Source: an uncultured Ruminococcus sp. (GTDB taxonomy: Bacteria; Bacillota; Clostridia; Oscillospirales; CAG-272). Taken from it: a stretch of DNA of 64,000 nucleotides. Shown here piece by piece: positions 36,032 through 61,776 of the stretch. The position numbers and the translations under genes were made by a program. The notes beneath the pieces are model-generated. The model saw nothing but the letters and a program-made list of their open reading frames with translations. It did no database searches and was not told where the DNA came from. Every line of letters begins with the position of its first letter. The first letter of the stretch is position 1. The DNA is taken from NCBI GenBank assembly GCA_905202255.1, contig CAJKRH010000001.1, positions 18,940 through 82,939 of the forward strand. The letters are read 5' to 3'.

Positions 36032-36052
36032 GGCGATCTTCCTTTCTTATAA

Positions 36053-37291: not shown

Positions 37292-37306
37292 ATTCTTCCC
37301 CTCACA

Positions 37307-38755: not shown

Positions 38756-38776
38756 AACTATTCCCTTTTCATACGT

Positions 38777-39439: not shown

Positions 39440-39462
39440 AAATATGCACTTCCTCTCATTGA

Positions 39463-40755: not shown

Positions 40756-40775
40756 ATAGGACCTCCGCAAGAAAA

Positions 40776-41774: not shown

Positions 41775-41787
41775 TTCTGCCCTCCTG

Positions 41788-45215: not shown

Positions 45216-45224
45216 ATTTTCTCC

Positions 45225-46666: not shown

Positions 46667-47733
46667 GGGATAGAGGTTATACTCCCCCCCCCGAATTTTT
46701 CTGTAATAATTTGGATTGCAGCTTCGGGCATATAATCCTTAGCTTTTTTTGTACAGTTGGCTTTCATGTCAAGCAGCATTTGTGGATCATGTGCAATGCC
46801 TAACAAGACATTTTCAAATTCATTCTCGTTATCAAACTCATAACCGATACCAGTCACACCTTCATCCACAACGTCAGAATAGCTTTCCCATTTTGCAGAA
46901 ATGACAGGAATACCCGCTGCATATGCGTCAATGATTGTGCCGGGAATTCCCTCAGTATAAAAATGGGTAGGAAAAAGCAATGCAAAATACGGTTGCAATA
47001 TTTCTACGCTTTTATCTGCATCCACACAACCGCAATATCGCACGCCTTCCGGAAAACACTTCTTCAAGCTTTCAAACCACTCTGTTTGCGTAGTATCTAC
47101 TTGACCGTAAATATCCAACGAATATGCTAAATATCCAAGCTGATTGTTTACTTTCTTAATCACATTCATCGCTGTTTCAATGCCCTTTTCTCTCATTACG
47201 CGAGAAAAAGTGCAAAGCTTATACGGCACGCCTTGCGGATAAACGAGTTCATTTTCAGAAAGCACCCTCAGCTTTTTGCAATTCGGCATAACGAACACAT
47301 TTTCAAAGCCGCGGGCATCCAATGCGCTTTTCATGGTGCCTGTTTCCACATAGATTCCGTCGAAATTTTTCAGAGCTTTCGCAAGCCCCTTTCGTTTCGT
47401 CAAAAACTGCGGAAGCCAACCGCCGATCACAACGTAATGCAATTTTCTGCCTTTGAAAAAATGCCGAAAAAAAGATAACAGGGGTGCGTATATCCTCAAT
47501 CCGTTTTGCGCCGGAAAAATCAGAATATTTCTACTGTTTTTCAGTGCGGAAACTGTTTGGAACGGTGCTTTTACAAGCGTTTTCCATCCCCCATGCGTAT
47601 CAAAATTTAAAACCTGTTCCCGCCCGAAGCTTCTTTGCAATTCTTCGGTGATGATTTTGGTTTTTACCGTTTGTCCGTTCAGAAGGGTTTCTCCCCCACC
47701 AAAGTGTCCGAGTACGCTTACCTTTGCCGACAT
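46663..47733 (-). CDS. GT-B glycosyltransferase (family 4-like)
   Basis: 356 aa. The C-terminal half has the GT4 nucleotide-sugar-binding pattern. It ends ...EKFGGGSITSIP. Confidence 0.75.
   Translation of the reverse strand: MSAKVSVLGHFGGGETLLNGQTVKTKIITEELQRSFGREQVLNFDTHGGWKTLVKAPFQTVSALKNSRNILIFPAQNGLRIYAPLLSFFRHFFKGRKLHYVVIGGWLPQFLTKRKGLAKALKNFDGIYVETGTMKSALDARGFENVFVMPNCKKLRVLSENELVYPQGVPYKLCTFSRVMREKGIETAMNVIKKVNNQLGYLAYSLDIYGQVDTTQTEWFESLKKCFPEGVRYCGCVDADKSVEILQPYFALLFPTHFYTEGIPGTIIDAYAAGIPVISAKWESYSDVVDEGVTGIGYEFDNENEFENVLLGIAHDPQMLLDMKANCTKKAKDYMPEAAIQIITEKFGGGSITSIP
46684..46692 (-). repeat. G9 homopolymer (C9 on the + strand) at the junction of the two glycosyltransferase ORFs
   Basis: On the + strand ACTCCCCCCCCCGAA. 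The tract encodes GGG at the C-terminal end of ORF 46663..47733. Confidence 0.95.
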
Positions 47734-47737
47734 AAAG

Positions 47738-48499
47738 TCACCCCTTTACATATCTGATTTTTTTCAGAACACCCCAGAACAGATTCCTGAGAGTAAGAGC
47801 GACAGAAACAAGCGGACTTCTCTTTTCCGCCTCCCGATACAGTTTATAGTGCCATTTAATCAGTTTTGTGTATCCGTGATTGCTGATGGAACCGCTCCGT
47901 TTTCTGTACTTTGCGAGCACCTCATCCAAAAGATAGCAATCCGCCTTTTTACATGCTTTCAGCCACATAGCATAGTCGTTGTTCTTTTTGATGTCCGCAA
48001 TCTGAATTAACCCAATGGTTTCCGCGTCATACATCACCGTCAGGCATCCCATCCAACAATAATTATACATGCCATGTCGGGTGACTTTCTTCGGTCCTGT
48101 CACGCTCCGCCCGTTCGGATTGGTGGTTTCATCTATTTCAATATAGTTCGTATAGGAAAAGTGGTAGTCATTTTTCTTCATAAATGAAATTTGTTTTTCC
48201 AACTTTTCCGGAAACCACAAATCATCACTGTCAAGAAACGCAACCCATTTTCCTTTTGCTTCACGCAATGCGCGGTTTCTGGATACCGCCGCTCCGCTGT
48301 TTTTTTCGTTTTTTATGTAACGAATCCGATCATCCACAAGATAGGGGCAAACAACCGCATCAGTATCATCGGTTGAGCAATCATCCACAATGATCAATTC
48401 CCAATTCGGATAAGTTTGCGCCAATACAGATTCTATCGTTTCGGATATAAATTTTGCCGTGTTGTACGACGGCATAATGATGGAAACCAATTCGTTCAT
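47738..48499 (-). CDS. GT-A family 2 glycosyltransferase
   Basis: MNELVSIIMPSYNTAKFISETIESVLAQTYPNWELIIVDDCSTDDT...LDSDD. Confidence 0.85.
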   Translation of the reverse strand: MNELVSIIMPSYNTAKFISETIESVLAQTYPNWELIIVDDCSTDDTDAVVCPYLVDDRIRYIKNEKNSGAAVSRNRALREAKGKWVAFLDSDDLWFPEKLEKQISFMKKNDYHFSYTNYIEIDETTNPNGRSVTGPKKVTRHGMYNYCWMGCLTVMYDAETIGLIQIADIKKNNDYAMWLKACKKADCYLLDEVLAKYRKRSGSISNHGYTKLIKWHYKLYREAEKRSPLVSVALTLRNLFWGVLKKIRYVKG

Positions 48500-48939
48500 T
48501 TTTCTTCTCCGTTCCCGAGAATTCTGCACGGTACACCAACGGCAGTTGCCCCATTAGGAATGTCCTTATTGACCAATGTACATGCACCAATCACGGCATT
48601 TTCACCGATCGTAACACCGGTCTTTCCGGATATGACATTCGCCCGCATTCCGATATATGCGCCTTTCTTTATCGTAATCGGGGTGTGTTGCTGATTCCGA
48701 CCGTGACAGGCAAAAAACACGCCATAGGAAATGATACAGTCATCTTCAACAGTAAACATATGCGGTTCCAGATCATCCAGATAGCATCTCATACCGATAA
48801 ATACATTTTTTCCTATGTTATAACCGCAAAGCCGATAGAAGAAAATGCGCCACCCGTTCAGAACCATATGAGGAATGATTTTTGCGCTCATCCACTTGCG
48901 AAAGAAAGCTTTCACCTTTTGCCATAAAGTTTTTTTCAT
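48496..48939 (-). CDS. Hexapeptide-repeat (LbH) acetyltransferase
   Basis: ...IGMRANVISGKTGVTIGENAVIGACTLVNKDIPNGATAVGVPCRIL. Confidence 0.75.
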   Translation of the reverse strand: MKKTLWQKVKAFFRKWMSAKIIPHMVLNGWRIFFYRLCGYNIGKNVFIGMRCYLDDLEPHMFTVEDDCIISYGVFFACHGRNQQHTPITIKKGAYIGMRANVISGKTGVTIGENAVIGACTLVNKDIPNGATAVGVPCRILGNGEEK

Positions 48940-48957
48940 ATATGCTCGCTTCCTTTT

Positions 48958-49653
48958 CTACACATTCAAGAGTTCCCTTGCTTCTTTTTGCTTTTCATCA
49001 TATGTAGCCTGATCAACTTTGCCTTCCATCATAAGCCAGTCACCGTAATCCATATCCGACACCGTGCCTTCGCGAACCGTATCGCTTCTTTTCAGGACTT
49101 TGCCTACTGTCTGAATGATAATTTTCAAATCACCAAGGAAGGTAATACCTCTGTCGATATACAGCAGATCGTATTCAAACTTCTGCTCCCATGTGATGTT
49201 GTTCCGCCCATTCACCTGCGCAAGCCCTGTAAGACCGGGGCACACATCATGGCGGCGGCGTTGTTCGTCGGTCAAGAATACGCAATCCCGAACCAAAAAC
49301 GGTCTCGGACCGACTATAGCTAACTGTCCAAGAACTATATTGACCAAAGACGGCAGTTCGTCAAGAGAAGTACTGCGTAAAAACGCTCCGTAATGTCCGA
49401 GACGCTGGTCGTCAGGGAGAAGTTCTCCGTTTGTCCCGCGTTTGTTACTCATTGAACGCAGCTTGATCAGATAAAAGATTTTTTCGCGTCCATCCTTACC
49501 TTTCTTCCCAGGACGGGGTTGCACAAAGAATGGATTTCCTCTCATAGCAATCGCACCGACTATGATTAAGACCAAAAGGACAGGTGACAGCACAATCAGT
49601 GCAAGCAAAGACAGTGTGAAATCAAAAAATCTTTTCCAAAACTTCGCATACAT
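48958..49653 (-). CDS. Small initiating phosphoglycosyl transferase (bacterial sugar transferase, PglC/WbaP C-domain type)
   Basis: KRFFDFTLSLLALIVLSPVLLVLIIV...LIKLRSM...LDELPSLVNIVLGQLAIVGPRP. Confidence 0.85.
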   Translation of the reverse strand: MYAKFWKRFFDFTLSLLALIVLSPVLLVLIIVGAIAMRGNPFFVQPRPGKKGKDGREKIFYLIKLRSMSNKRGTNGELLPDDQRLGHYGAFLRSTSLDELPSLVNIVLGQLAIVGPRPFLVRDCVFLTDEQRRRHDVCPGLTGLAQVNGRNNITWEQKFEYDLLYIDRGITFLGDLKIIIQTVGKVLKRSDTVREGTVSDMDYGDWLMMEGKVDQATYDEKQKEARELLNV

Positions 49654-49674
49654 ATATGTAACCCCTTGACAAAT

Positions 49675-50952
49675 TTAATTGAAGCAACTCTTGATTATCT
49701 CAATCACCTTTGCCTGATCTTCCTCAGTCATCTTGTTATCGCTCGGCAGACAGCAGCCGCGTTCAAAAATATCCGCACCAATGTCGGTTGCACCGCCTGC
49801 AATATAAGCATTCGTGCGGCAACGGAGCGTACCTTCTCTCCCAACCGCTTCATGCATACGGTACATCGGCTGCATATGCATGGGCTTCCATATCGGTCTG
49901 CCCTCGGCGTTAAGACTTGCAAGTGTCTCTAAAATTTCCGTCGGACAAGTCTTGCCTTTTTCTTTTATGTAGAGTGCCTTGGAATCGTCTCTGACCTGCT
50001 TGCACATATATTCCTTGTCAATAATCAAAGCGGACAGCCAATAATTTGGCACAGCGCCGTCGATAATCGGATTCATGTGAACAGGCAGATCTTTCAGCCC
50101 ATCACGATAACACTCATAAATCGCTTTTTTCTGTGCAATATGTTCTCCCAGATGTGGATACTGTCCGCGGATTACACCGGCGACCACATTGCTCATGCGG
50201 TAGTTGTATCCGACTTCTTCATGCTGATACCACGGGGCATTTTCACGTGCCTGTGTTGACCACTTGCGCACCTTGTTTGCCACCTCAATGTCGTTGGTAA
50301 GTAAGCAACCACCGGCGGAACCCGTGATGATCTTATTGCCGTTGTAACTGATTGCCGAATAATCTCCGAACGAACCGCACTGTTTGCCATTCAGTGTTGC
50401 GCCCATTGCTTCGGCGGCATCTTCAATTAAGAGCGCACCGTGCTTTTCGCAAATCTGCTTGATTAAATCAATGCGTCCGGGAAAACCGTACAGTTCGGCG
50501 CAAACCACAAGCTTGACATCGGGATACATTTCAAACGCCTTTTCGAGCGCGACGGGATCCATGTTCCAGCTATCCGCCTCGGTGTCGATAAACACCGGAA
50601 TGCCGCCCTCGTAAACAACGGGATTGAGCGTCGCATCAAAAGTCATATCCGAGCAGAATACGCGCTTGCCCTCCAATGCGCCGTGGCTGATGGCAGGCTT
50701 TCCGTACAATCTTTCTCCTGCGGATTTCACACAAAGATGAAGTGCTGCCGTACAGCACGAAAGCCCCACCGCATATTTCATCCCGGCTTTCTCGGCAGCA
50801 ATGCGCTCTACTTCGTTGATGTTTGCGCCGACCGTGGACATCCAATTCGTCTCATACGCCTCGGTCATATATTTCAGCTCCTCGCCATGCATTGTCGGCG
50901 TAGCGAGCCATACTTTCTTTTCAAAAGGTATAAATCCCATAATTTCCTCCAC
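49675..50952 (-). CDS. DegT/DnrJ/EryC1-family sugar aminotransferase (PglE-like)
   Basis: ...WLATPTMHGEELKYMTEAYETNW... and a PLP-Lys region AISYNGNKIITGSAGG. Confidence 0.85.
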   Translation of the reverse strand: MEEIMGFIPFEKKVWLATPTMHGEELKYMTEAYETNWMSTVGANINEVERIAAEKAGMKYAVGLSCCTAALHLCVKSAGERLYGKPAISHGALEGKRVFCSDMTFDATLNPVVYEGGIPVFIDTEADSWNMDPVALEKAFEMYPDVKLVVCAELYGFPGRIDLIKQICEKHGALLIEDAAEAMGATLNGKQCGSFGDYSAISYNGNKIITGSAGGCLLTNDIEVANKVRKWSTQARENAPWYQHEEVGYNYRMSNVVAGVIRGQYPHLGEHIAQKKAIYECYRDGLKDLPVHMNPIIDGAVPNYWLSALIIDKEYMCKQVRDDSKALYIKEKGKTCPTEILETLASLNAEGRPIWKPMHMQPMYRMHEAVGREGTLRCRTNAYIAGGATDIGADIFERGCCLPSDNKMTEEDQAKVIEIIKSCFN

Positions 50953-50957
50953 AAATT

Positions 50958-53060
50958 TTATACTGCCGCAAGGCTCTTTTCTTTCTCGTGCTCTTTGCTC
51001 TCGACAAGCTCCATTTGTTCCTCAAAAGTCTCGCCCTTATATTCCGAGCCGTGTTTTCCGGCAGGGTGATAGGTTGTGACGACACCTTCCACCAATGTGC
51101 GGATTTCGTTTTCTTTTCCGGCGTATGCCGCTTCCATGAGCATTTGGAGCTGTCCGAGGAATGTATCTGCGTCAAATGGAATGGGACTGCCGATATGTAT
51201 CAGCTTGTTCGGAGTTGTGCGCATACCTTCTTCGGACATCAACTTTTCTTCATACAGCTTTTCTCCGGGACGAAGTCCTGTATACTCGATTTTGATATCT
51301 ATATCTGGACGCAGGCCAGACAGCTTGATTAAATTTCTTGCGAGCGTGTCGATCTTCACGGGCGAACCCATATCAAGCACAAAAATTTCTCCGCCTTTTG
51401 CATAAGTACCTGCCTGCAAAACGAGCGACGCGGCTTCGGGGATTGTCATGAAATAGCGGATTATATCGGGATGCGTGACCGTTACAGGACCGCCTTTGGC
51501 GATCTGCTCCTTGAAACGCGGCACGACAGAGCCGTTGCTTCCGAGAACGTTGCCGAAGCGTACTGCAACAAATTCGGTTTTTGCGTTTTTTGCAATCTTC
51601 GCAATATCGCGCATACTGCCGTCCTCATCATCGCTGTGAACATGAAGCGGAAGCAATTCATACGCTTTTTTGTCGCGGATTTTGCGGTCAAACAACTGTA
51701 TTATCATCTCGCACAGGCGTTTTGATGCGCCCATGATATTAGTGGGGTTAACCGCCTTATCGGTGGAAATCAGAACAAAGCGTTTGCAGCCGTTTGTCAT
51801 TGCGGCATAGGCAGTTTTATACGTACCGATAGCGTTATTTTTGATTGACTCGCACGGGCTGTCCTCCATAAGAGGAACGTGCTTATGCGCCGCTGCGTGA
51901 TATACAACGTCGGGCTTGTACTTTTCAAAGACCTGATTGATCCGGCGGCTGTCGCGCACCGAACCGATGAGGACTTCCAAATTCAGATTCGGATATTTGT
52001 CTCTCAGCTCCAACTGAATGGCGTGAGCATTGTTTTCGTAAATATCAAAGATGATAAGTTGCTTCGGCTCATGGGACGCAATCTGACGGCACAGCTCACT
52101 GCCGATTGAACCTCCGCCGCCCGTGACAAGAATTGTTTTTCCTTTTATAAAGTCGTAGATTTCCTTCATATCGACTTTAACGGGGGCGCGCCCGAGCAAA
52201 TCTTCCACGGCAACATCTTTCATCTGACTTGCCATTACATTTCCGGTCACAAACTGATACATACCGGGAAGATTTTTCAGTTCGCAGGTCGTTTCCTTAC
52301 AGATATTGAGAACGTCTCTGCGCTCCTCTGCAGTTGCACTCGGAATGGCGAGGAAAATCTTTTCGATTCTGTATTTTTCGACATTCAGCAGAATATCTTC
52401 TCTGCCGCCGACGATCGGAACACCGTCAATAAAGCAACCGCGTTTGTTTTTGTCATCGTCAATGATACAGCACACGCGGTCATGTACTTCTTTTGCGTTC
52501 TGGAGATCACGCAGGATCATTCGCCCTGCCGAACCCGCGCCGATCAGCATAACTCGGCTTGCCGTATTGTCGGTTTGTCTCCACGACATTCTGTTTCGCT
52601 CCAAGTGAATGAAACGATATGCAAAACGCGCTGCCAATGAAAGCATGAATTGAATTGCAATTCCGCCGGCATAATAGACAATGGGCATACGTTCGAACAA
52701 AAGGGTTATGGCTACTGTATGAAATATACCAAGTATCAACGATGCAACTGTCGTTCTCGCGAGTTCTGAAAAGCTTGCATACTTCCAAACGCTTTGATAC
52801 AACTTGAAAAGCCAAAAAACAAAAACACAGGCAAACGCATATAACGGCATAAATTTGAGCCATGCCGCGAAGTATTCATGCGGTATCTGCGTATATTTAC
52901 AGTCAAACCGAATCCAGAGCGCAGCGAGATATGCTCCCGACGACACAACTATATCGTATAGCGCCAAAAAAACCGATGCCATATGAAAATCTTCAAATGA
53001 AGAACGATTCTTCTTGTCGATTGAAACGTTATTTTGCTTTCGCATATTTCTTCTCCCCAT
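50958..53060 (-). CDS. Membrane-bound CapD/PglF-like UDP-sugar 4,6-dehydratase
   Basis: An N-terminal 4-TM segment, two Rossmann regions (MLIGAGSAG; LVTGGGGSIGSEL) and a polysaccharide-biosynthesis-protein core. Confidence 0.85.
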   Translation of the reverse strand: MGRRNMRKQNNVSIDKKNRSSFEDFHMASVFLALYDIVVSSGAYLAALWIRFDCKYTQIPHEYFAAWLKFMPLYAFACVFVFWLFKLYQSVWKYASFSELARTTVASLILGIFHTVAITLLFERMPIVYYAGGIAIQFMLSLAARFAYRFIHLERNRMSWRQTDNTASRVMLIGAGSAGRMILRDLQNAKEVHDRVCCIIDDDKNKRGCFIDGVPIVGGREDILLNVEKYRIEKIFLAIPSATAEERRDVLNICKETTCELKNLPGMYQFVTGNVMASQMKDVAVEDLLGRAPVKVDMKEIYDFIKGKTILVTGGGGSIGSELCRQIASHEPKQLIIFDIYENNAHAIQLELRDKYPNLNLEVLIGSVRDSRRINQVFEKYKPDVVYHAAAHKHVPLMEDSPCESIKNNAIGTYKTAYAAMTNGCKRFVLISTDKAVNPTNIMGASKRLCEMIIQLFDRKIRDKKAYELLPLHVHSDDEDGSMRDIAKIAKNAKTEFVAVRFGNVLGSNGSVVPRFKEQIAKGGPVTVTHPDIIRYFMTIPEAASLVLQAGTYAKGGEIFVLDMGSPVKIDTLARNLIKLSGLRPDIDIKIEYTGLRPGEKLYEEKLMSEEGMRTTPNKLIHIGSPIPFDADTFLGQLQMLMEAAYAGKENEIRTLVEGVVTTYHPAGKHGSEYKGETFEEQMELVESKEHEKEKSLAAV

Positions 53061-53297
53061 AAAACCAATTCATGCTTTTTAAGAGAAGTAAGTTCCCGCT
53101 CCTCCCCGAAAAATTTATTGGCGTTTTGTAACTTATGTTTATACAGTCGTATATTTTTGGCACGACAATCATCCGATGATGATTACTCATCCCCGGCTAA
53201 TTCAACCTCCCTATAAAATTTTGTGTGCTTATTGATTGGGGCAAAATAAGCTATCAAGAAGCCATTTTGATTGTTTCAAAGGCTGTCATTTACCTTT

Positions 53298-53747
53298 TCA
53301 TGCCCCGCATAAAACCTTATAGCGAAACCGAATTAACCCGACAACCCTTGAAAAATCTATGTTTTTCTTGGTTGCCTCTATTATATCTCTCTCCCCGATG
53401 ATGCTCATTTTGCCCGTGAAAATATTGAAAAGTTGCGGCAATTCGTCTATACTCATTTTTCGCATCCACCGCCCGCATTTAAGTATATACTGCTCCGGAT
53501 TTTCAAGCATATGCGTCGGCATATCATGCGGTGTAGACATTTTCATACTTCGGAATTTGAGCAAACCGAACTGCGTTTTATGTATACCGATTCTCTTTTG
53601 TCTGAAAAATACGGGACCCGGATCCTCTGCTTTTATGATAAATGCGAAGACAATCATCGGCAAAGCCAAGACAACGATCCCGATGAAAGACAACACTATA
53701 TCAATCAACCGTTTAAAAAAATGCCTATACATTTTCGTTGAAACCAA
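53298..53747 (-). pseudogene. Truncated second sugar transferase
   Basis: It matches the sugar transferase family through ...MSIDELPQLFNIFTGKMSIIG, then loses the PRP motif and ends at 149 aa. Intact members are about 200-230 aa. Confidence 0.55.
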
Positions 53748-53943
53748 CTTTCAAAAATCATTTTCTATGAGAAACATCCGAAAAACACTGCGGAGGTGAC
53801 GAATAGAATGTGCAGAACACTGTTGCAGACATTGCAAAATCATAAGCAAAGTTCGCCATTGACCGCGTGTGCAACATGTGAAAAATATTATGCATTCGCG
53901 GTCATAATTTGTCCTCCAAAGTCGATTTACACCTTCGTCTATA

Positions 53944-54077
53944 CATAGTTTTATTATATCATAAGGCACTCGACATGTCAATACTTTTTAAGCATAGTTT
54001 TTAAGCATAGTTATATTATCCGTAAATCAGGGATAAACTTTTTTCGCACACTAACTGGATAATATAAAAGCATAGTT
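53944..54077. repeat. Four copies of CATAGTT (three of them as AAGCATAGTT) upstream of the polysaccharide operon
   Basis: The copies are at 53944, 53993, 54006 and 54071. ACATAGTTTTATTATATC and GCATAGTTATATTATC are longer related versions. Confidence 0.6.
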
Positions 54078-54185
54078 GTATCTTAGCTTACAACTTTCTG
54101 CCATTCTTTATTTTTGTAATCATCCATAATATGGCAAAAGCGGTCTTTCCGATTACACGGAAAGGCCGCCTTTTCTTATTCATTA

Positions 54186-54893
54186 TTATACCCTCCCCAA
54201 AACTCTTCCGCAGCAGAACACGCTGTCATGCTCGGAGAGGCGTATGGGCTTATACTTTTCGTTATGCGAGATCAGGCAACCGTTCCCGCGCTCCTTGATG
54301 AAGACATCGCCGTTGACAACGAAGATACCGATCTCGCCGGCATCGACGGAGTCGCATTTTTCAACAAACACCTTGTCTCCGTCATGGTAGGTCGGCTCCA
54401 TGCTGTCGCCGCCAACAGAAATCACGAAGTCCGCCTTCTCCGCTTCCTTGGATTCGGGAACAAGAATCTCTTCGGCAATCTCGCTGTCAAGAATATTGCC
54501 CGTACCTGCGGAAGCCGGAAGCGTGTAATAATCCATTCTCAGCATACGGCACTTGGCTTTCCTGACGGTTGCGGCTACTCGCCTGTACTCGCTGTCAATA
54601 AGATAATTCACGATTTCTTTACCGTGTTCGTCAAGGACGCGGTATTTTTTTATCGTCTCCCATTCGGCAGCCGTAGGACGTTCCGACATCGACCTGCAAC
54701 CGATCATCTCGTCTGCGGATACACCGAGAAGGTTACAGAGCTTCGCCAGCTTGTCACAATCGGGGCGACCGATTCCCTTTTCCCAGTTGTATATCACCCT
54801 GCCGGAGCTTTCGCCGAGCGCATCGGCAATCTCCTGTTGCGTCATGCCGCGGATACCTCTGTATTTTTTAATCTGTTCGCCTATTACGCTCAT
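54186..54893 (-). CDS. CI/LexA-like repressor (XRE HTH plus S24 peptidase domain)
   Basis: IKKYRGIRGMTQQEIADALG is the HTH. The C-terminal VGGDSMEPTYHDGDKVFVE...VFIKE carries the S24 Ser/Lys dyad context. Confidence 0.8.
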   Translation of the reverse strand: MSVIGEQIKKYRGIRGMTQQEIADALGESSGRVIYNWEKGIGRPDCDKLAKLCNLLGVSADEMIGCRSMSERPTAAEWETIKKYRVLDEHGKEIVNYLIDSEYRRVAATVRKAKCRMLRMDYYTLPASAGTGNILDSEIAEEILVPESKEAEKADFVISVGGDSMEPTYHDGDKVFVEKCDSVDAGEIGIFVVNGDVFIKERGNGCLISHNEKYKPIRLSEHDSVFCCGRVLGRV

Positions 54894-54924
54894 ACCGAAT
54901 TCCTCCGAATTTTATTACGCATAC

Positions 54925-54953
54925 AGTATACCACATCTCATTGTAGTTGTCAA
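54925..54953 (-). promoter_or_regulatory. Promoter for the repressor (TTGACA-17 nt-TATACT)
   Basis: On the minus strand TTGACA at 54953..54948 and TATACT at 54930..54925. Confidence 0.55.
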
Positions 54954-54983
54954 GAACAAATACAATTATTTTGTGCGCAGCTA

Positions 54984-55012
54984 TTGACAACACAATATTC
55001 TTGTAGTATAAT
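54984..55012 (+). promoter_or_regulatory. Divergent consensus promoter (TTGACA-17 nt-TATAAT)
   Basis: TTGACA at 54984..54989 and TATAAT at 55007..55012. The two -35 boxes form the inverted repeat GTTGTCAA/TTGACAAC. Confidence 0.6.
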
Positions 55013-55042
55013 ATCAAATACACAACGAGAAAGGAGAACAAT

Positions 55043-55330
55043 ATGGCGGGCAAGCGAAAAAACTTCTTTATGGTTGACAACAGAATCTTTGAATACGGTC
55101 TGAAACCGCGGGACATCGCCGTCTATTGTTTTCTTTGTCGTCGTATGAACCGTGAAAGCAATGTGGCTTTTCCTTCCCGGAGAGATATCGCAAACGGGTG
55201 CGGAATCAGGAAAGAGGAAACCGTGGACAAGGCAATTAAATCTCTTCTCGAAAAAGACCTGATTGAAAAATTTCACCGATACACGAATGCGGGCGATTAC
55301 GGCTCCAACGTGTATCGGCTGAAAATGTGA
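55043..55330 (+). CDS. Winged-helix DNA-binding protein
   Basis: 95 aa containing ...FFMVDNRIFEYGLKPRDIAVYCFLCRR...FPSRRDIANGCGIRKEETVDKAIKSLLEKDLIEK. Confidence 0.6.
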   Translation: MAGKRKNFFMVDNRIFEYGLKPRDIAVYCFLCRRMNRESNVAFPSRRDIANGCGIRKEETVDKAIKSLLEKDLIEKFHRYTNAGDYGSNVYRLKM

Positions 55331-55550
55331 CCGGGTGGTGTCTGAAATGGTGGTGCTAACAAGAAATCTTAACCATATATCTTATATGCAGAAGAGAACA
55401 ATAAGTTATATAGGCTAATTCGCGGTTTTTTCTTCTGCACTTATTCCCGGCGCTCTGCGTCCGGGGTTGTGGCAAGCATAGCGCGTGGATGTCCACCGCC
55501 TTTCGGCGGCACACTTCCCGCACACAATCGGGCAGAAGCCCGAACCCACT

Positions 55551-55578
55551 TACCTTTTCTTTGCGAAAAGAAAAGGTA
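55551..55578 (+). promoter_or_regulatory. Candidate oriT hairpin
   Basis: A perfect 12-bp inverted repeat, TACCTTTTCTTT-GCGA-AAAGAAAAGGTA, lies 60 nt upstream of the mobC-like start. Confidence 0.4.
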
Positions 55579-55638
55579 ATCCAAAAGAACCGAATCAGAG
55601 AAGCAACAGCAAAAAAACATGTGCGAAAGGAGAAACCG

Positions 55639-55956
55639 TTGAGCAGAAAACAAACAGAAACCCTGACCATTCGCCTCACAGCGGAAGAAAAAATGGAGTT
55701 GCAGAAGAAAATGTACGAAGCCGTCTCACCTTCCATGCGCGATTTCATTCTCAAAATGTGCCGTGACGGGAAGATTATTGTCAATGAAGAGCTGCGGGAG
55801 CTGAACCGTGAACTGAAATATCAGGGCAACAATCTCAATCAGCTCACGCGGCTGGCACATCAGAATCGTTTTTCTTCTGCCGATCTTTCACAGCTTCTTT
55901 CGGTTTACAGAAAAATTCTTGCAGCACTCGGAGGGCAAAATCATGGCGGTTGTTGA
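55639..55956 (+). CDS. mobC: MobC-like relaxosome accessory protein
   Basis: A TTG start lies 7 nt after AGGAG. (L)SRKQTETLTIRLTAEEKMELQKKMYEAVSPSMRDFILKM...LKYQGNNLNQLTRLAHQN is the MobC pattern. The upstream part of the tracked ORF overlaps hairpins. Confidence 0.7.
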   Translation: MSRKQTETLTIRLTAEEKMELQKKMYEAVSPSMRDFILKMCRDGKIIVNEELRELNRELKYQGNNLNQLTRLAHQNRFSSADLSQLLSVYRKILAALGGQNHGGC

Positions 55957-57349
55957 AAGCATTCCGGAAAAAGTACAGACGCCGAGCGCACAGAAAGGTG
56001 TGCTTGATTACTGTATGCAACCGTCAAAAACCTTTGACGAGGGCGAACAGCTTGCGTATATTTCCGGCTACAACTGCATTCCCGAGATGGCAAACGAATC
56101 GTTCCTCGCCACTCAAAAGGTGTTCGGTCATGCGGCGGGCGGCGTTCGTTTCTATCATTTCGTGCAGTCTTTTATGCCCGGAGAGAATATTTCTCCGCAG
56201 GAGGTCAACGAAATCGGGGTGGAGCTTATCAAAAGCTTCGGCAACCGTGAAGCAATCATCGCCACGCATATCGACCGCGAGCATCTGCACAATCACATTG
56301 TCGTATGCACCTATGACCTTGTTGACGGTCGGAAACTGCATTACAATAAATTTTTCCTTGCCGATTTGCGAAAAGCGAGCGATGAAATCTGTCAGGCTCA
56401 CGGGCTGAAAGTACTTCGGGAATACGATCCGAACGTTAAATCCCAACGCATGAAGCCGAAGGAATATCGCGCGGCACTGAACGGCAACAGCATGAAAATG
56501 GCACTCTGCGCAACGATTGATTTCTGTATGACAAAGGCAAAAACGCGGAACGAGTTTCAAAGTGAAATGAAAAAGTACGGTTATGAAATGGTATGGACTC
56601 CCGAGAGAAAGTACATCACCTACATCCTCCGCGGCAGGGACGGAACGGAAAAGCGCGTGCGTGACAAGAGTTTATTTGATGAAAAATACCGAAAGGAGAA
56701 CATGGAGCATGAATTCAGAATCCGGGAAGAGCTATATGGACAAGCTCAAAGCAAAGAATATTCCGCCGCAAATTCAGGCGGAAATGCAGACGGAAGAAGA
56801 AATACCGACGGTGCAGATCAGCGTCGCGGAGTGGGACGAGCTGATCGCTTCGGTGAGCCGTTTGGAGGAGCTTTCAGCCGAGCTGACGGCGCAGAGGACG
56901 GCTTTTGCGGCGGAGGCAGGCAAGTATACCGAACAGATTACGAAGGCGATACAGGCGCAGAACGAGGCGACAGCGGCAGCGATACGGAAGATTTCGGAGG
57001 ACGCCTCCGAACAGGTTGGGAAAGCGAGCGAAAAAGCCTCGAAACTTATCTGCAGAAGAAGCATACGGGACGACGCACTGTGGTGGCTTCGCATGGCGTA
57101 CGCGGCAATTCCGATGATACTGACCTTGCTCTTATGGGCATACGTGGGCTTGAAAGCCTGACGGATATTCTTGAAGACGGCGATGAATCCGAGGAAGAAA
57201 AGCGGGAGCGAGAAGCAAGAAATACAGGAACCGCTCTCGGCATTGCCGCCGGAGTTATTGCCGGCATGGCAATCGGACTCGGGCAAGATGAGGACGGAGA
57301 TATTGAAGAAGACGAGGATGAAAACGAAGACTTCGGAATGACAATGTAG
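55943..57349 (+). CDS. Relaxase/mobilization nuclease (MobA/VirD2 family)
   Basis: The N-terminal domain carries the histidine motif ATHIDREHLHNHIVV. GGAGGG RBS. The C-terminal part is low complexity with TGWESER and ends ...EDFGMTM, as recalled for Clostridia relaxases. Confidence 0.8.
   Translation: MAVVESIPEKVQTPSAQKGVLDYCMQPSKTFDEGEQLAYISGYNCIPEMANESFLATQKVFGHAAGGVRFYHFVQSFMPGENISPQEVNEIGVELIKSFGNREAIIATHIDREHLHNHIVVCTYDLVDGRKLHYNKFFLADLRKASDEICQAHGLKVLREYDPNVKSQRMKPKEYRAALNGNSMKMALCATIDFCMTKAKTRNEFQSEMKKYGYEMVWTPERKYITYILRGRDGTEKRVRDKSLFDEKYRKENMEHEFRIREELYGQAQSKEYSAANSGGNADGRRNTDGADQRRGVGRADRFGEPFGGAFSRADGAEDGFCGGGRQVYRTDYEGDTGAERGDSGSDTEDFGGRLRTGWESERKSLETYLQKKHTGRRTVVASHGVRGNSDDTDLALMGIRGLESLTDILEDGDESEEEKREREARNTGTALGIAAGVIAGMAIGLGQDEDGDIEEDEDENEDFGMTM
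56709..57161 (+). CDS. Candidate nested gene in an alternative frame inside the relaxase gene (coiled coil plus C-terminal TM helix)
   Basis: AAAGGAGAA lies 10 nt upstream of ATG 56709. The 150-aa product is MNSESGKSYMDKLKAKNIPPQ...AEWDELIASVSRLEELSAELTAQRTAFAAEAGKYTEQITKAIQAQNEA...ALWWLRMAYAAIPMILTLLLWAYVGLKA. Confidence 0.4.
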   Translation: MNSESGKSYMDKLKAKNIPPQIQAEMQTEEEIPTVQISVAEWDELIASVSRLEELSAELTAQRTAFAAEAGKYTEQITKAIQAQNEATAAAIRKISEDASEQVGKASEKASKLICRRSIRDDALWWLRMAYAAIPMILTLLLWAYVGLKA

Positions 57350-57594
57350 TCTGAATTTTCTCTTTTATCTCCGGCAATAATGAAAGGGGTGATGCGGCAC
57401 ATAAAAAATGCGGGTTTGCGTACATAAAGGCACTGCCGGACAGACGGTCGGAATATGCTGTCGGACATAGCATCCGGCGCGGGCAAATCTGCCTTTTCGG
57501 AGGAACGATTGAACTTATTCTTTCCCGCAAACGCAAAGCCGCGAAAAAAGACGGGCGCGTTCACGCAAAAAAATGAAGAAATGAGGTGGGTCAT

Positions 57595-57840
57595 ATGGAG
57601 ATGAACATTCATCATGACAGCAAAACGGTCGATATATGGCTCACCGGAAGCGAGGCGCGGGACGAAAGCTTCCGTCGCTCGCTTGAGCCGTATTACCGGC
57701 AATTTGCGAAGCACAAGTATTTTGTGTCGGTGTTTGAATCGGGCGACCGGGAGCTGTTACCGGATACCGTCCTGCTCCTCCGCCACAATCTTGAGCTTCA
57801 GATGAAAGCCGAACCTGCGACAGAGCAGGTTCAGGCGTAA
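57595..57840 (+). CDS. Hypothetical small protein
   Basis: Open frame with GAGGTGG upstream. The start is ambiguous (57586 GTG, 57595 ATG or 57601 ATG). No recognisable motif. Confidence 0.45.
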   Translation: MEMNIHHDSKTVDIWLTGSEARDESFRRSLEPYYRQFAKHKYFVSVFESGDRELLPDTVLLLRHNLELQMKAEPATEQVQA

Positions 57841-57910
57841 AAAACGGGGCAGGAGGCGCAATGCCTTCTGCCCTGTTGCATACCTTTTTGTGCTCAAAAT
57901 TCCGCCGGTT

Positions 57911-59197
57911 TCAGTTTTTCAGAGCCGTAATCGAGACGACAAAAACACCGTCCGGGCGGACATATGCCGCATTGGAGAGCCCGCAGATGACGCAAAGAAC
58001 CGACGGAGCCACGCCTCCGTTCTTCTCAATATCGTTGCGAAGTGCAACAAGTTCTGTTGCGGCTTTATCGATTTGGTTGGCACCGAGCTTTATCTCAAAC
58101 GCGCACCATTTTCCGTCCTTCAATTCAACCACCGCGTCAATTTCCTTGTTGTTGTAGTCCTGATAATGATACAGGTTCGCCCCGAACGACTCGGCATAAA
58201 TCTTCAGATCGCGTTCCACCAGAGCTTCAAACAGAAATCCAAAGGTTTCAAGGTCGCCGATCAGCTTATCCGGAGTGGCTTTCAGCAAGGCACAGGCAAG
58301 CGCGGGATCGCAGAAATGTCTTTTTTCGGCTTGCTTCACGCGAACGGAAGAACGGATATTTGCAGAAAAAGGAAGTTGATTGTCAAGCAGAAAAAGACGG
58401 TTGAAAACATCCAGATACGTGGCTATCGTGTCCATATCGATTGCTTCATCATCAAATTCGCGGATATCGTTCAGCAGTTTTTTCTTGGTAGCCGTTGTGC
58501 TTTCGTTGCGGGCAAGGGAGCGCAGAAGAAGACGCATTTTTGCCACATCATATTTTTTGCCGTCAATGCTCTGTGAATCATCGTCAAGTATGGCATCAAG
58601 ATAGGATTGCGGCAACAGCGAAGCATTTTCCGGCGTAACATTCAAGTTCCCGGGCCATCCTCCGCGTACCGTATAATATGCAAGGTCACGCAGACTGACC
58701 TCGCCTGTCATTGCCGGGGTAATCTTGCCATTGCAGAGCTCTTCCAATGAAACAACGCCCCCGGATTCACCGGACTCATAAAGAGACATGGTGCGCATGC
58801 GCAATCTTCCGATTCTGCCGGCACCGCTGTGAAGAACCCCCTTGCGTTTTGGTGTGGAGGAGCCGGTCAGAATAAACTGCCCCTTTTCCGCCCGACCGTC
58901 AACCGTGTACCGAACTGCATCCCAGATTGAGGGAACCTCCTGCCACTCGTCAAGCAGACGCGGCGTTTCGCCTTCCAGAACAATGGACGGAGACATTTCC
59001 GCCAATGCACGGTTCTGAAAATTGTTTGCAGGATCACCGATTAAAAACTCACTTTTGCTATGAAATGAAGAAGTCCATGTTTTCCCGCACCATTTGGGAC
59101 CTTCGATACACACCGCGCCGAAGGCGGACAAATATCTGCAAACTGCGCTGTCGATAACACGCGGCTTGTATTTCGATGGTTCAGCGATTTTTTTCAT
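57911..59197 (-). CDS. AAA_14/DUF4143-type ATP-binding protein
   Basis: Walker A IEGPKWCGKTW, a Walker B-like segment and a C-terminal DUF4143-like region. 428 aa. Confidence 0.7.
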   Translation of the reverse strand: MKKIAEPSKYKPRVIDSAVCRYLSAFGAVCIEGPKWCGKTWTSSFHSKSEFLIGDPANNFQNRALAEMSPSIVLEGETPRLLDEWQEVPSIWDAVRYTVDGRAEKGQFILTGSSTPKRKGVLHSGAGRIGRLRMRTMSLYESGESGGVVSLEELCNGKITPAMTGEVSLRDLAYYTVRGGWPGNLNVTPENASLLPQSYLDAILDDDSQSIDGKKYDVAKMRLLLRSLARNESTTATKKKLLNDIREFDDEAIDMDTIATYLDVFNRLFLLDNQLPFSANIRSSVRVKQAEKRHFCDPALACALLKATPDKLIGDLETFGFLFEALVERDLKIYAESFGANLYHYQDYNNKEIDAVVELKDGKWCAFEIKLGANQIDKAATELVALRNDIEKNGGVAPSVLCVICGLSNAAYVRPDGVFVVSITALKN

Positions 59198-59510
59198 AAC
59201 AAAATACCTCCGGATTGTTTTTCACATATATTATAACCCATTCCTTGATATTTTGCAAGCCTATTCCGAGAAATTTTGAAATTTCATTCGGTATAATTTT
59301 GAATATTCATTCCGTGAGATTTTGAATTACAGCATTGAAAATGCTACGCTTATTATAGCACGTTGACCTCAAAAGTCAGCAAAAGTTGAAATCATAAACT
59401 TCTTTATTTCAAAAAATCGTGTTTTATTGAAACAAACCGGCGAACCGCGCCTTGTTAATTTCAAAATTCCACGGCAAATGATAACAATTCATGTCTTTGC
59501 AAATATCTCA

Positions 59511-59539
59511 TTGACAGCGGGCGGGTTTTGTGATACAAT
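59511..59539 (+). promoter_or_regulatory. Promoter of the recombinase gene (TTGACA-17 nt-TACAAT with TG extension)
   Basis: TTGACA at 59511..59516, TG at 59531..59532 and TACAAT at 59534..59539. Confidence 0.6.
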
Positions 59540-59574
59540 GTTATCAGCAATACATCAAAGGAGTGATTATCAAT

Positions 59575-61776
59575 ATGGTTGAAAGGTTCCGCATTGCCGC
59601 GTACACGCGAATCTCCGTAGACCTGGAGCTTGACCGCGATAACACGAGTATCGAAAACCAGAAGGCAATCATAGACGAATACTGCCGTCTGCACTTTCCG
59701 ACAAGCACGGTCGATTACTTTGAGGATCGCGACAAATCGGGCTACACCTTCGAGCAACGCCCCGATTACATGCGTATGCGCGAAAAGCTCATGCAGCGCG
59801 AATACGATATACTTATCATCAAGGACCTGAGCCGTTTCTCGCGAAGAACCGGCAAAGGTCTTGCCGAATTTGAGGATCTTGCCGAGCGCGATATCCGCAT
59901 CATTGCCATCGGCGACGGGGTGGATTATTATCAGGATCACATCGACGACTGGATGAAGATCAAGCTCTACTTCTTCGTCAACGAAATGCCCGTCACAGAC
60001 ACGAGCCGCAAGGTGTCCGACGTCATTGCCTCACGGCAGTCAAAGGGCGAGTGGATATGTTCGGTTCCCTTCGGCTATGTCATCACCAACTCCAAGAAAA
60101 TGACCTTTGAGGTCGACGAGCCGTCCGCCGAGGTAGTGCGGCGCATATTCAACTATTATATCGACGGCTGGGGCTATAAAAAGATTGCAAACCATCTGAC
60201 AGACGAGCATATCCCCACGCCGCGAATGCGGGAAAAAGCACGCAAGGAAGCGCAGGGCGACGAGTACAAAGGCAAGGTAAAGGAAACATGGAGCATCGTG
60301 ACCGTCTCCGAAATTCTCTGCAACGACTTTTATATCGGCACACTGCGTCAGCACAAATTCAAGCGGAAAAAGATAAACGGAAACGATGTGCCGCTCGACG
60401 AAAGCCAGCATATCGTGTTTGAAAACCATCACGAGCCGATTGTTGACTACCGCACCTTTGCCGTCGCTCAGGAGCTGTTGAAGCAACGCACGACCACCCA
60501 CTACCGCGGTCAGAAGAAGTACGCCAACAACTACTCCGGCTACCTCTTCTGCGGTGACTGCGGCTCGCCGATGTTCTCGCGTAGCCGTCCCGACCTTGCC
60601 GACGCTTACATCTGCGGAACCTATCACACGCGCGGCAAAGCTGGATGCACGACGCATCACATCCGCGTGGATGTGCTTGACCGTGAGCTGAAACGGTACA
60701 TCACCAAGGTCTGCGAGAATTCCGAAAAAATGATAAAACAGCTGGAAACCGAAATCAGCTTTGAGCCGAATGCGGTGAAGGACAGCGCCAAAGCCGCGGA
60801 GGAGCTTTCAAAGCTCATCGAGCAGGAAAAGGATTCGCTCAAAATCCTGATGCGGCAAAAATCCCGCGACCTCTCCCGCGCAAAGGGAAACGAGGACGTC
60901 ATCATGGAAACCTACGACGCGCTGATTGAGGAAAGCGCCAACCGGATTCACGGGTTGGAAAATCAGATCGCCATGACGGCAGATACGAGAAATACCATCA
61001 TCAGAGCCAACCGCCATGCAAAAACGGTGCTGGAGATCTTCCACGATATTCTGAGCAAAGAAAAGCTGGACAAGCGCGACATCGGGCTGATTGTTGACCG
61101 CATCATCGTATATGAAAACCGCATCGAAATCAAGCTGCGTGGTGATGTGGACGCGCTCCTGCGCTGTGACGATGAGGTACAGGAGGAGGCAATCGCAAAT
61201 TTTAACGGGGACACGGAGAATATCGAAAGAACCACAGAAAAATACAACTCTGTGGTGGTTCAATCAGCAAAAAACCAAGCTGATAAGGTTTTTCGTGTCA
61301 ATGTTATCAGTGGCGGCGACCCTCTCGAAATATATACCGACCGCGAAGGCGAAGTTATCTTCAAAAAATATTCACCGATAGGCGAACTGATGGATTTTGC
61401 GGCAAGCTATGCGGAAACGCTTTATAAGACCTGCAATTTCCCCGTAGCCGTCTGCGATAAGGATTGCGTTATCGCCTGCGCGGGAATATCGAAAAAGGAA
61501 TTTCTCGACAAGAAAAATTCAGAAGAAGCAGAAAAAATTATCGAAAACAGAAGTCTTTATACGCATGCACCGACTAAGGAGAAAATTTATCTGACGGAAG
61601 AAAGCCGCGGCTGGTATATTTCATGTGCCATGCCTATCTTTGCCGAGGGTGATGTTATCGGCTGTGTTGCGGCGCTTGCAAATGCCGAATCCGGAAAAGA
61701 CAATGCCGCCACGGAAACCGAAACAAAGCTTATCCAGACGGCGGCAGGCTTTCTCGGCAGACAGCTCGAGGCTTGA
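59575..61776 (+). CDS. Large serine recombinase, open through attR into the spoVT 3' portion
   Basis: MVERFRIAAYTRISVD is the catalytic Ser context. A recombinase domain, a zinc ribbon (CGDCGSPM...CGTYHTRGKAGC) and a long coiled coil follow. There is no stop before 61774. The last 153 codons or so are SpoVT-like. Confidence 0.85.
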   Translation: MVERFRIAAYTRISVDLELDRDNTSIENQKAIIDEYCRLHFPTSTVDYFEDRDKSGYTFEQRPDYMRMREKLMQREYDILIIKDLSRFSRRTGKGLAEFEDLAERDIRIIAIGDGVDYYQDHIDDWMKIKLYFFVNEMPVTDTSRKVSDVIASRQSKGEWICSVPFGYVITNSKKMTFEVDEPSAEVVRRIFNYYIDGWGYKKIANHLTDEHIPTPRMREKARKEAQGDEYKGKVKETWSIVTVSEILCNDFYIGTLRQHKFKRKKINGNDVPLDESQHIVFENHHEPIVDYRTFAVAQELLKQRTTTHYRGQKKYANNYSGYLFCGDCGSPMFSRSRPDLADAYICGTYHTRGKAGCTTHHIRVDVLDRELKRYITKVCENSEKMIKQLETEISFEPNAVKDSAKAAEELSKLIEQEKDSLKILMRQKSRDLSRAKGNEDVIMETYDALIEESANRIHGLENQIAMTADTRNTIIRANRHAKTVLEIFHDILSKEKLDKRDIGLIVDRIIVYENRIEIKLRGDVDALLRCDDEVQEEAIANFNGDTENIERTTEKYNSVVVQSAKNQADKVFRVNVISGGDPLEIYTDREGEVIFKKYSPIGELMDFAASYAETLYKTCNFPVAVCDKDCVIACAGISKKEFLDKKNSEEAEKIIENRSLYTHAPTKEKIYLTEESRGWYISCAMPIFAEGDVIGCVAALANAESGKDNAATETETKLIQTAAGFLGRQLEA
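61315..61322 (+). repeat. attR core GGCGACCC
   Basis: Identical to 29678..29685, in the same codon phase (GAC CCn). Confidence 0.7.
61315..61776 (+). pseudogene. spoVT: spoVT 3' portion (GAF-like C-terminal domain)
   Basis: GDPLEIYTDREGEVIFKKYSPIGELMDFAASYAETLYK...IFAEGDVIGCVAAL...ETKLIQTAAGFLGRQLEA parallels Bacillus SpoVT from residue 31 or so to its end. Confidence 0.85.

Follow-up and report, generated by a model that had tools for sequence, protein, structure and literature searches.

The gene of a large serine recombinase straddles its attachment site and exchanges its C-terminal codons upon integration into spoVT

The reading frame at positions 59575 to 61776 of a 64,000-nucleotide stretch of DNA from an uncultured Ruminococcus sp. 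(contig CAJKRH010000001.1, the whole stretch being called the window here) encodes a large serine recombinase (LSR) that runs on into a host sporulation gene. An integrative mobilizable element of 31.6 kb, whose LSR targets codon 33/34 of spoVT, has its attR junction at this site. The C-terminus of the recombinase depends on the integration state: the native enzyme ends in a tail of 25 residues, while the integrated copy carries the 150-residue remainder of SpoVT instead. We regard this anatomy, i.e. an LSR gene that straddles attP and an element that resides in spoVT, as practically certain.

The plus-strand frame is open from 59530 to 61776. The ATG at 59575, with the ribosome-binding site AAAGGAG located 8 nt upstream, starts a protein of 733 residues that terminates at the TGA of 61774-61776. 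In this respect the listing of open reading frames (ORFs) agrees with an earlier, preliminary description of the locus. The protein displays the domain order of the LSRs (resolvase-type, recombinase, zinc ribbon) and matches PHROG 95 'integrase' at 1e-85. Its parts are as follows.

59575..61323, plus strand: element-encoded LSR part, residues 1-583, ending in ...VNVISGGDP
Residues 8-159 of the 733-residue protein: Resolvase (Pfam)
Residues 185-305: Recombinase (Pfam)
Residues 321-375: Zn_ribbon_recom (Pfam)
Residues 604-732: SpoVT_C (Pfam, E = 1e-35)
61324..61776, plus strand: spoVT 3' segment, codons 34-183 and the stop, the in-frame tail of the integrated recombinase
29687..29764, plus strand: the LSR's own last 25 codons, TLTTLTPVARFLYALMDLSKRIGLN, and the stop, at the other end of the element

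The host part of the fusion thus comprises residues 584-733 (150 codons, 61324..61773). In addition to the GAF-like SpoVT_C domain, it contains strands beta3-beta4 of the AbrB-type domain. The preliminary description had let the recombinase part extend to about 61314 and had counted some 153 host codons; its junction coordinates were off by 8-9 nt. In the integrated state, the LSR's own 25-codon tail is read as the end of a 58-residue spoVT 5' fragment. In the predicted circular form, the same ORF would pass through 29687..29764 and end in ...VISGGDP-TLTTLTPVARFLYALMDLSKRIGLN-stop, yielding the 608-residue enzyme that had already been proposed and that follows directly from the sequence. The statement that the gene has no stop of its own holds for the integrated copy only, as the gene's own stop is found at 29762-29764. 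The recognised recombinase domains (residues 1 to about 530, catalytic and DNA-binding) are common to both isoforms.

The identical 733-residue protein is present on six independent contigs (NCBI, Logan, ENA), by which a sequencing error is excluded; its 90% cluster counts 572 members. The AlphaFold model of the fusion contains long helices at residues 365-494, with blocks of pLDDT 63-86, which may correspond to the coiled coil that LSRs carry within the zinc domain. As a whole the model is poor (mean pLDDT 54), with residues 528-597 below 50 and confidence only in SpoVT_C, and it was not used for the mechanism.

The attachment sites and the host gene are laid out in the window as follows.

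29686..61322: integrative mobilizable element, 31,637 bp with one core copy counted
29678..29685: attL copy of the 8-bp core GGCGACCC, with the predicted crossover dinucleotide GA at 29681-29682
61315..61322: attR copy of the 8-bp core GGCGACCC, with the predicted crossover dinucleotide GA at 61318-61319
29686..29705: P' arm of attP, GACGCTGACAACATTGACAC, which mirrors the P arm
61295..61314: P arm of attP, GTGTCAATGTTATCAGTGGC, lying within the final LSR codons (RVNVISG)
29588..29686, plus strand: spoVT 5' segment, codons 1-33 (MKATGIVRRIDDLGRVVIPKEIRRTMRIREGDP), with the ribosome-binding site GGAGG at 29573-29577

As in other intervening elements, the two halves of the interrupted gene (29588-29686 and 61324-61776) restore an ORF when joined. 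The resulting SpoVT is identical to a public intact protein (P0391), and a second spoVT copy was not found in the window. In the five empty-site contigs that encode this protein (L208-L212), both flanks of the element could be aligned at 92.4-92.5% identity, and the two alignments overlap by exactly the 8-bp core. Together with the core repeats, these contigs set the precise boundaries of the element at 29686 and 61322.

Joining the inner halves of the two junctions rebuilds a 48-bp attP that is a near-perfect palindrome, GTGTCAATGTTATCAG-TGGCGGCG/ACCCGACG-CTGACAACATTGACAC, with the junction sequence GTGTCAATGTTATCAGTGGCGGCGACCCGACGCTGACAACATTGACAC. The attB junction, obtained by joining the outer halves, contains GAATACGCGAGGGCGACCCTCTCGAAATATATACC. 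The number of symmetric positions amounts to 19/30 for attP vs 8/30 for attB, and the 8-bp core alone is common to both. Serine-integrase att sites are short (about 40-50 bp), and an attP that forms an imperfect inverted repeat around GA, next to a weakly similar attB, matches their geometry. The GA lies in the middle of the core, and the position of the crossover is deduced from this symmetry.

The P arm makes up roughly the last eight LSR codons on the element side (RVNVISGGD), and the P' arm encodes the first codons of the tail (PTLTTLTP), the remainder of which is amphipathic. Among 70 distinct family sequences, the third-codon positions of the last 10 recombinase codons show only 0-1.3 bits, compared to 1.5-1.9 bits in the upstream codons and in those of the host spoVT. 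These synonymous positions are frozen, and the last recombinase codons are constrained as DNA, as is to be expected for a binding site inside the ORF.

On the host side, the 58-residue ORF (29588-29764) consists of the first 33 SpoVT residues followed by TLTTLTPVARFLYALMDLSKRIGLN, and lies 31.6 kb upstream of the recombinase-side half. It is found on 429 contigs. The preliminary description had assigned it an intact ribosome-binding site, which is correct, and an AbrB-like DNA-binding domain, which is not: the AbrB/MazE-type domain of intact SpoVT spans residues 7-50 and is split by the element at codon 33/34. Only profile positions 1-26 of the 48 in PF04014 are kept, and the product is half an AbrB-type domain without an intact DNA-binding domain. 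The idea that the LSR end mimics the SpoVT N-terminus to complete the AbrB fold was dropped, as inspection revealed no similarity beyond the att-constrained ..GDP.

The fusion is found throughout the family. Among the best 120 protein clusters (72-98% identity), 119 carry SpoVT_C, and the remaining one is cut by a contig end within the spoVT part. A candidate free form without SpoVT_C (P0116, 605 residues) was rejected, being a fusion truncated by a contig end. With one genome taken per species, 80 loci with an LSR identity of 51-98% could be recovered. They comprise 66 complete in-frame fusions, seven fusions cut by a contig end, three loci with other tails and four uninformative ones, so that 73 of the 76 informative species loci contain the in-frame SpoVT fusion. 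The hidden stop or indel considered in the preliminary description was not encountered. All 66 complete loci proceed from ..GDP into LEI(Y/F)T.. and on to the spoVT stop over 144-155 host residues, with premature stops in 0/66. The carriers belong to the Acutalibacteraceae, Oscillospiraceae and Ruminococcaceae; among them are two that have been cultured, Flintibacter muris DSM 110149 (L068) and Oscillospiraceae bacterium 50-58 (L059).

The identities of the LSR and of SpoVT_C are uncoupled: one locus (L001) shows 98% vs 60%, another (L011) 73% vs 73%. This indicates that the tail is that of whatever host the element sits in and that the element moves between species.

Some loci are arranged differently. 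In L016 (3529-3680), whose LSR is 66% identical, the P arm is followed by the spoVT B arm in reverse-complement orientation, and TC takes the place of GA at the centre. The element appears to be inserted here in the opposite orientation, with the LSR reading 78 residues of antisense spoVT, although this is a single short contig and a misassembly is possible. In L039 (11700-15084), a P'-like sequence CTGCTGAAATCATTG comes after the recombinase, with a 12-residue tail, LLKSLEDEILFC-stop, and then a chemotaxis-receptor gene. An intact spoVT is located 2.8 kb downstream, and a secondary site, a rearrangement or a chimeric contig is possible. L034 (6049-7010) contains a fusion ORF of at least 320 residues without a stop, in which the likeness to SpoVT_C is limited to the first 75 residues; another insertion into the 3' part of spoVT, or a chimera, may account for it. 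The recombinase of L049 (11640-11960) ends at a palindromic GGCGA/TCGCC and continues into 95 unrelated residues, and the 10 kb downstream contain no spoVT.

Relatives from IMG/VR (L128-L131) and the INPHARED entry MT836658.1 were considered as phages and rejected, as they proved to be mobilizable elements or attR junctions that include host DNA. MT836658.1 (L213, 103-2591), labelled 'Bacteriophage sp.' from a faecal virome, is a host attR junction with the gene upstream of the LSR (see below) and a 700-residue recombinase-SpoVT_C fusion, followed by recN, argR, nadK and tlyA.

The native tail could be followed at the other end of the element. A metagenome scan for the core plus the P' arm returned 39 contigs, all of which (39/39) are attL junctions. 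They represent 25 distinct tail alleles, with conservative variants such as VARFLYALMDLSKRIGLN, QSRFIFAMLDLSKRLGLTCAE and AFRFAHALMDLSKRIGLN and many synonymous changes. The ratio of nonsynonymous to synonymous substitution rates (dN/dS) is 0.07-0.18 between alleles, and the homology vanishes right after the stop. By this substitution pattern, the native tail is under selection as part of the protein. The ends of the tails are variable (N, K, E, TCAE...) and carry no ssrA-like motif, and the extreme C-terminus is the least conserved part.

In an exhaustive profile-free search, ordinary LSR homologues were found to end near query residue 530. The LSRs of the spoVT elements possess an extension of about 50 residues beyond this point, which reaches the att site. 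The three nearest outgroup enzymes have ends that are homologous to the family tail: P0125 (..NINVVREGEG-FVTTLSLIERYCYAIVLLSSRIPDYIQQ), P0135 (..INVVNDTSP-VVTTLIRAVKSLNDILTSILSRKQ) and P0129 (..SEGDP-SQTTLEAMDGFVFSLHSMVKRCAIS). All three are LSRs in the native form. P0125 (46% identity) is encoded in a free phage (L120-L125), where the homologous tail is contiguous with the gene and phage genes flank it on both sides (NrdD, dUTPase, lysins and the reverse transcriptase of a diversity-generating retroelement). The attP geometry is the same (CAATGTT, 26 nt, AACATTG, with GA at the centre), and on our own inspection the inner P arm, AGAGAAGGTGA, encodes R-E-G-D in the way expected of a low-GC spoVT. 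As the free phage carries the tail contiguously and with the same attP geometry, the contiguous gene plus tail can be taken as the native form.

Homologues, then, do not stop ahead of the core, a case that would have spoken against the wrap-around tail proposed in the preliminary description. That tail is conserved as protein across the 39 attL junctions, and with its homologue in the free phage it bears out the integration-dependent C-terminus. P0129 (42% identical, with its own TTL-type tail) was observed alone between ATP synthase/ClpA and transporter genes (L126, 10001-11683), with a 66-residue ORF upstream, and may be a minimal element or a remnant.

Regulation of the recombinase was approached through the promoters and the gene that precedes it.

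59511..59539, plus strand: recombinase promoter of the housekeeping type with extended -10 (TTGACA 59511-16, 17 nt, TG-n-TACAAT with TACAAT at 59534-39)
57595..57840, plus strand: partner protein of the recombinase, 81 residues, candidate recombination directionality factor (RDF)
57353..57382, plus strand: candidate forespore-type promoter (GAATT, 18 nt, CAATAAT; 13.5 bits), about 210-240 nt upstream of the partner gene
29502..29530, plus strand: candidate forespore (sigmaF/G-like) promoter of spoVT (GCATA, 17 nt, AACAATA; 11.7 bits, a consensus match only)

The housekeeping type of the recombinase promoter, already recognised in the preliminary description, is confirmed. With 11/12 matches it is the best sigma70-type match in the region, and TG-n-TACAAT is the best match at the same position in 46 of 79 distinct upstream regions of the family, that of the free phage included. 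Of 93 family sequences, 78 encode a homologous partner of 70-90 residues just upstream of the LSR, the free phage once more among them. These proteins share the motif V.IWLT..E...Y.V.VF.SG..DL...LL.HN. The partner yielded no Pfam, NCBIfam or PHROG match. Its AlphaFold model (pLDDT 72.5, beta-alpha-beta-alpha) reached a best E of 0.23 against the PDB, which points to no known RDF or other fold. An Rfam scan of 29000-62500 with E up to 0.1 returned no RNA family, the leader of about 210 nt before the partner gene included.

For the search for forespore promoters, a sigmaF/G weight matrix was built from 47 mapped Clostridioides difficile promoters (PMC7438776, Table S5). Scores of at least 10 bits were obtained upstream of the partner gene in 34 of 69 distinct regions, and 22 reached at least 12 bits. 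At the same threshold of 10 bits, matches were found in 3.9% of shuffles, in 1.7% of random windows from the same loci and in 0/77 upstream regions of the recombinase. As a positive control, the upstream regions of the host spoVT matched in 13 of 19 distinct cases. The matches before the partner gene mostly lie 14-38 nt ahead of the start codon (62 nt in three loci), and several have the same form as the mapped dacF and CD2808 promoters: G(A/T)ATA, 17 nt, GAAAATA. The GAATT-18-CAATAAT motif is kept in the subfamily of the window at 8.4-13.7 bits. The strongest match of the matrix in the window is found elsewhere, at 11708-11735 on the minus strand (18.2 bits; GAATA, 16 nt, GGTAAAAATAT).

This arrangement resembles the intervening elements skin of C. 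difficile (CD1231/CD1234) and SPbeta of Bacillus subtilis (SprA/SprB), in which an LSR at the end of the element interrupts the frame of a sporulation gene and removal of the element restores it. In skin, the LSR CD1231 is expressed from a sigmaA promoter and made everywhere, and the 72-residue RDF CD1234, under the control of sigmaE/SpoIIID, confines excision to the mother cell (PMC5025042). In these known elements the recombinase has a housekeeping promoter, and direction and cell type are specified by a small, unrelated protein under a sporulation sigma factor (PMC5025042, PMC4191935). The spoVT element likewise combines a housekeeping recombinase promoter with a gene for a small protein, the sporulation-type promoter of the latter being a candidate here. 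All intervening elements described so far (skin, SPbeta, vfbin, vrin, gin) reside in genes of the mother cell, and their excision is confined to that cell, so that the spore keeps the element (PMC4191935). The target spoVT, in contrast, belongs to the forespore genes: it is transcribed in C. difficile under sigmaF and sigmaG, and the mutant produces no heat-resistant spores (PMC3789822). A candidate forespore-type promoter also precedes spoVT in the present hosts, and the candidate partner promoter is of the forespore type as well. The element further differs from skin and SPbeta in being a mobilizable island with polysaccharide cargo instead of a prophage remnant, and in that its recombinase gene crosses attP.

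Integration in the same orientation and in frame with spoVT swaps the native 25 residues for 150 of SpoVT, and excision at the core would restore both spoVT and the recombinase gene exactly. From the anatomy, excision would be performed only by the 733-residue fusion and new integration only by the 608-residue native isoform, unless a second element supplies the enzyme. In our view the SpoVT fusion is rather probably a tolerated by-product of an attP that lies inside the ORF, as opposed to a sensor fusion kept by selection: with a stop ahead of the core the element would lose its own tail, and the host codons after the core are not alterable. The three loci with unrelated tails, including L016 with its opposite orientation, fit this reading. 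Direction would be set mainly by the conserved partner of 70-90 residues, with RDF-controlled excision in the forespore. Judged from promoter matches and gene position, the chance that the partner is a forespore-expressed RDF is put at slightly less than even. The two-promoter logic would be like that of skin, transposed to the forespore, where spoVT is needed. Taken as a whole, the combination of a straddled attP, a by-product fusion and a direction set by the partner is the explanation that we favour, with some reservation.

Several observations weigh against it. Excision in the forespore would take the element out of the germ line unless it reintegrates. The circular attP junction was absent from the 39 metagenome contigs, the viral collection and the top protein hits, which leaves excision of the element a prediction. 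The partner has no detectable similarity to known RDFs or solved structures. Strict consensus sequences for sigmaF/G/E/K in the style of B. subtilis matched in only 0-3 of 69 regions upstream of the partner gene and were replaced by the matrix from C. difficile, itself a distant species. In the subfamily of the window, the motif is weaker and located further upstream, and the matrix yields at least 11.5 bits about once per 5.5 kb by chance in the window. The fusion model, given its low confidence, is uninformative on any contacts of the tail or of the SpoVT domain with the enzyme.

In a bolder version, these would be the first elements to intervene in a gene of the forespore (germ-line) compartment, and they would act as a reversible switch. 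We consider this unlikely, yet its steps can be spelled out. The partner, driven by sigmaF/G, would make the SpoVT-tailed recombinase excise the element in the forespore. This would rebuild spoVT for late spore development and return the native tail to the recombinase gene, and the non-replicating circle would be carried in the spore. At germination, production of the partner would stop, and the 608-residue enzyme from the housekeeping promoter would bring the element back into spoVT. In such a switch, the state-dependent C-terminus would help to keep both directions apart.

The exchange of the C-terminus could also be the directionality or regulatory device itself. In that case the native tail would promote recombination of attP x attB, prevent that of attL x attR or restrict the lifetime of the enzyme, and the SpoVT-tailed form, with its dimerising GAF-like domain, would be tuned for excision or locked against it. 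Purifying selection on the tail is in line with this: in relatives down to 40-46% identity, all of which have attP inside the ORF, the conservation of the tail is close to that of the remaining enzyme, and its loss on integration is thus an old and retained property of the clade. Both reaction directions are, by the anatomy, necessarily served by different isoforms, and engineered fusions of a serine integrase with its RDF are able to reverse the preferred direction (PMC5737554), which makes a natural state-dependent tail a plausible control point. The fused part in the engineered enzymes is artificial and the cognate RDF, however, whereas here it is a fragment of a host transcription factor that differs between hosts (SpoVT_C identity from 39% to 100%). 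Three loci even have unrelated tails, with 78 antisense residues in L016. Moreover, a conserved and separately regulated small protein is available as a conventional RDF, and a C-terminal degron is contradicted by the extreme C-terminus being the least conserved part of the tail. Such a device therefore seems a doubtful explanation of the fusion.

It is more improbable still that the element is trapped, i.e. that it no longer excises, that spoVT is inactivated in hosts that sporulate poorly or not at all, and that the fusion is irrelevant. The attP junction was not found in any collection searched, and the integrated state dominates, as judged from the 429 contigs with the attL product and the 572 members of the fusion cluster. 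Against decay stand the LSR, the partner gene, both promoters and both att arms, which are intact and conserved across about 80 species, as well as the 66 complete loci without a premature stop in the spoVT 3' part. The uncoupled divergence of LSR and host points to recent interspecies transfer, close relatives have empty sites, and permanent loss of spoVT would be costly for a spore former if the C. difficile phenotype (PMC3789822) is a guide. An artefact (missed stop or indel) or a fixed, non-mobile, domesticated recombinase-SpoVT_C gene is refuted by these data and retains next to no probability: the identical protein on six contigs is accompanied by hundreds of related fusions, the spoVT 5' half that matches is found 31.6 kb upstream with an identical core, relatives possess a precise empty site, and the SpoVT part always follows the local host and not the recombinase lineage.

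Att sites inside an integrase gene are known from archaea. In the 'suicidal' integrases of the SSV1/pTN3/pT26-2 type, the att site also lies inside the integrase ORF and excision rebuilds the gene; such compact modules of integrase and att site are tyrosine recombinases and are said to be exclusive to archaea (PMC8371274). Those enzymes (Phage_integr_3-type) are split into inactive N- and C-terminal parts, whereas the bacterial serine recombinase described here stays one ORF, exchanges only the last 25 of its 608 codons (584-608) and continues in frame into the host gene. A change of C-terminus upon integration is further known from the integration-dependent immunity of mycobacteriophages: attP lies in the repressor gene, integration alters the C-terminus of this element-encoded protein, and the isoforms behave differently (PMC8092301). 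There, with tyrosine integrases, the repressor is shortened and loses an ssrA-like tag. In the spoVT element it is the recombinase itself that is altered, and it is lengthened, without a conserved C-terminal tag.

The clostridial elements Tn4451/Tn4453 (TnpX) and Tn5397 (TndX) also combine an LSR at one end with a relaxase and a GA crossover in a mobilizable or conjugative element. In Tn4451, expression of the recombinase depends on the state of the element through a promoter formed at the circle junction. State dependence thus resides in the promoter in Tn4451 and in the coding sequence in the spoVT element. TnpX and TndX are not known to need an RDF and are looser in their choice of target.

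The remaining genes of the element comprise polysaccharide, defence and regulatory functions. The combination of relaxase, NikA/MobC-like protein and LSR, with neither a conjugation apparatus nor phage structural genes, makes it an integrative mobilizable element; it is not a phage.

30299..32117, plus strand: AAA_21 ATPase and RloB-like pair (Pfam), probably a defence module
34868..53747, minus strand: polysaccharide cluster of about 19 kb with glycosyltransferases, Wzy, flippase, DegT, Polysacc_synt_2, sugar-nucleotide enzymes and Bac_transf (Pfam)
54186..54893, minus strand: LexA-like repressor (HTH_3 and Peptidase_S24, Pfam), gene intact
55489..57349, plus strand: mobilization module with the NikA/MobC-like protein (55489-55956) and a MobA/VirD2-type relaxase (55919-57349) (Pfam and NCBIfam)
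57911..59197, minus strand: AAA_14/DUF4143 ATPase gene (Pfam), a secondary insertion between partner gene and LSR

The AAA_14/DUF4143 insertion is confined to the window, L001 and L004, and partner gene and LSR are adjacent elsewhere. At the left end of the element, the AAA_21/RloB-like pair, probably an anti-phage module, is preceded by a sigma70 promoter with a perfect 12/12 consensus (30253-30281). The polysaccharide cargo is partly shared (24-98% protein identity), and only with L002; cargo is modular between otherwise near-identical recombinases. Two ORFs of the cluster encode Bac_transf priming transferases, one truncated (53298-53747) and one of full length (48958-49653).

Outside the element, the synteny of the window with the empty-site relatives ends at 29448, where the relatives possess smpB and two small genes. 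The region directly upstream of spoVT (27639-29448) contains instead a radical-SAM/SPASM-like gene of 461 residues and a small Cys-rich peptide ORF, possibly a pair for a ribosomally synthesised and post-translationally modified peptide. Near the intact spoVT of the relatives, beside smpB, L209 (1-763) carries a LexA-like gene that is 94% identical to window positions 54307-55069, and L212 (311-1488) contains NikA/MobC and RepA_N genes. The smpB/spoVT vicinity in these two contigs looks like a second hot spot for related mobile elements.

In a full-text literature search that combined spoVT with serine recombinase, intervening element or prophage, spoVT was not described as an integration target. 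As a bacterial serine-recombinase family with an att site inside the gene, these elements are an exception, in a milder form, to the stated rule that such integrases are archaeal tyrosine recombinases (PMC8371274). The enzyme survives integration with an altered tail, and the two natural isoforms lend themselves to studies of the role of the extreme C-terminus in serine integrases, a class of enzymes widely used as genome-engineering tools. The restriction of intervening elements to mother-cell genes is usually explained by the mother-cell genome being the only disposable one. A widespread family that sits in a forespore gene and has a forespore-type promoter on its likely RDF makes this explanation directly testable. 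Found in at least 80 species, the family is common among Oscillospirales of the human and animal gut and moves cargo between species. In the present case this cargo consists of a 19-kb surface-polysaccharide cluster and a defence module, and the family may thereby connect the capacity of gut commensals to sporulate with their surface structure and with horizontal transfer.

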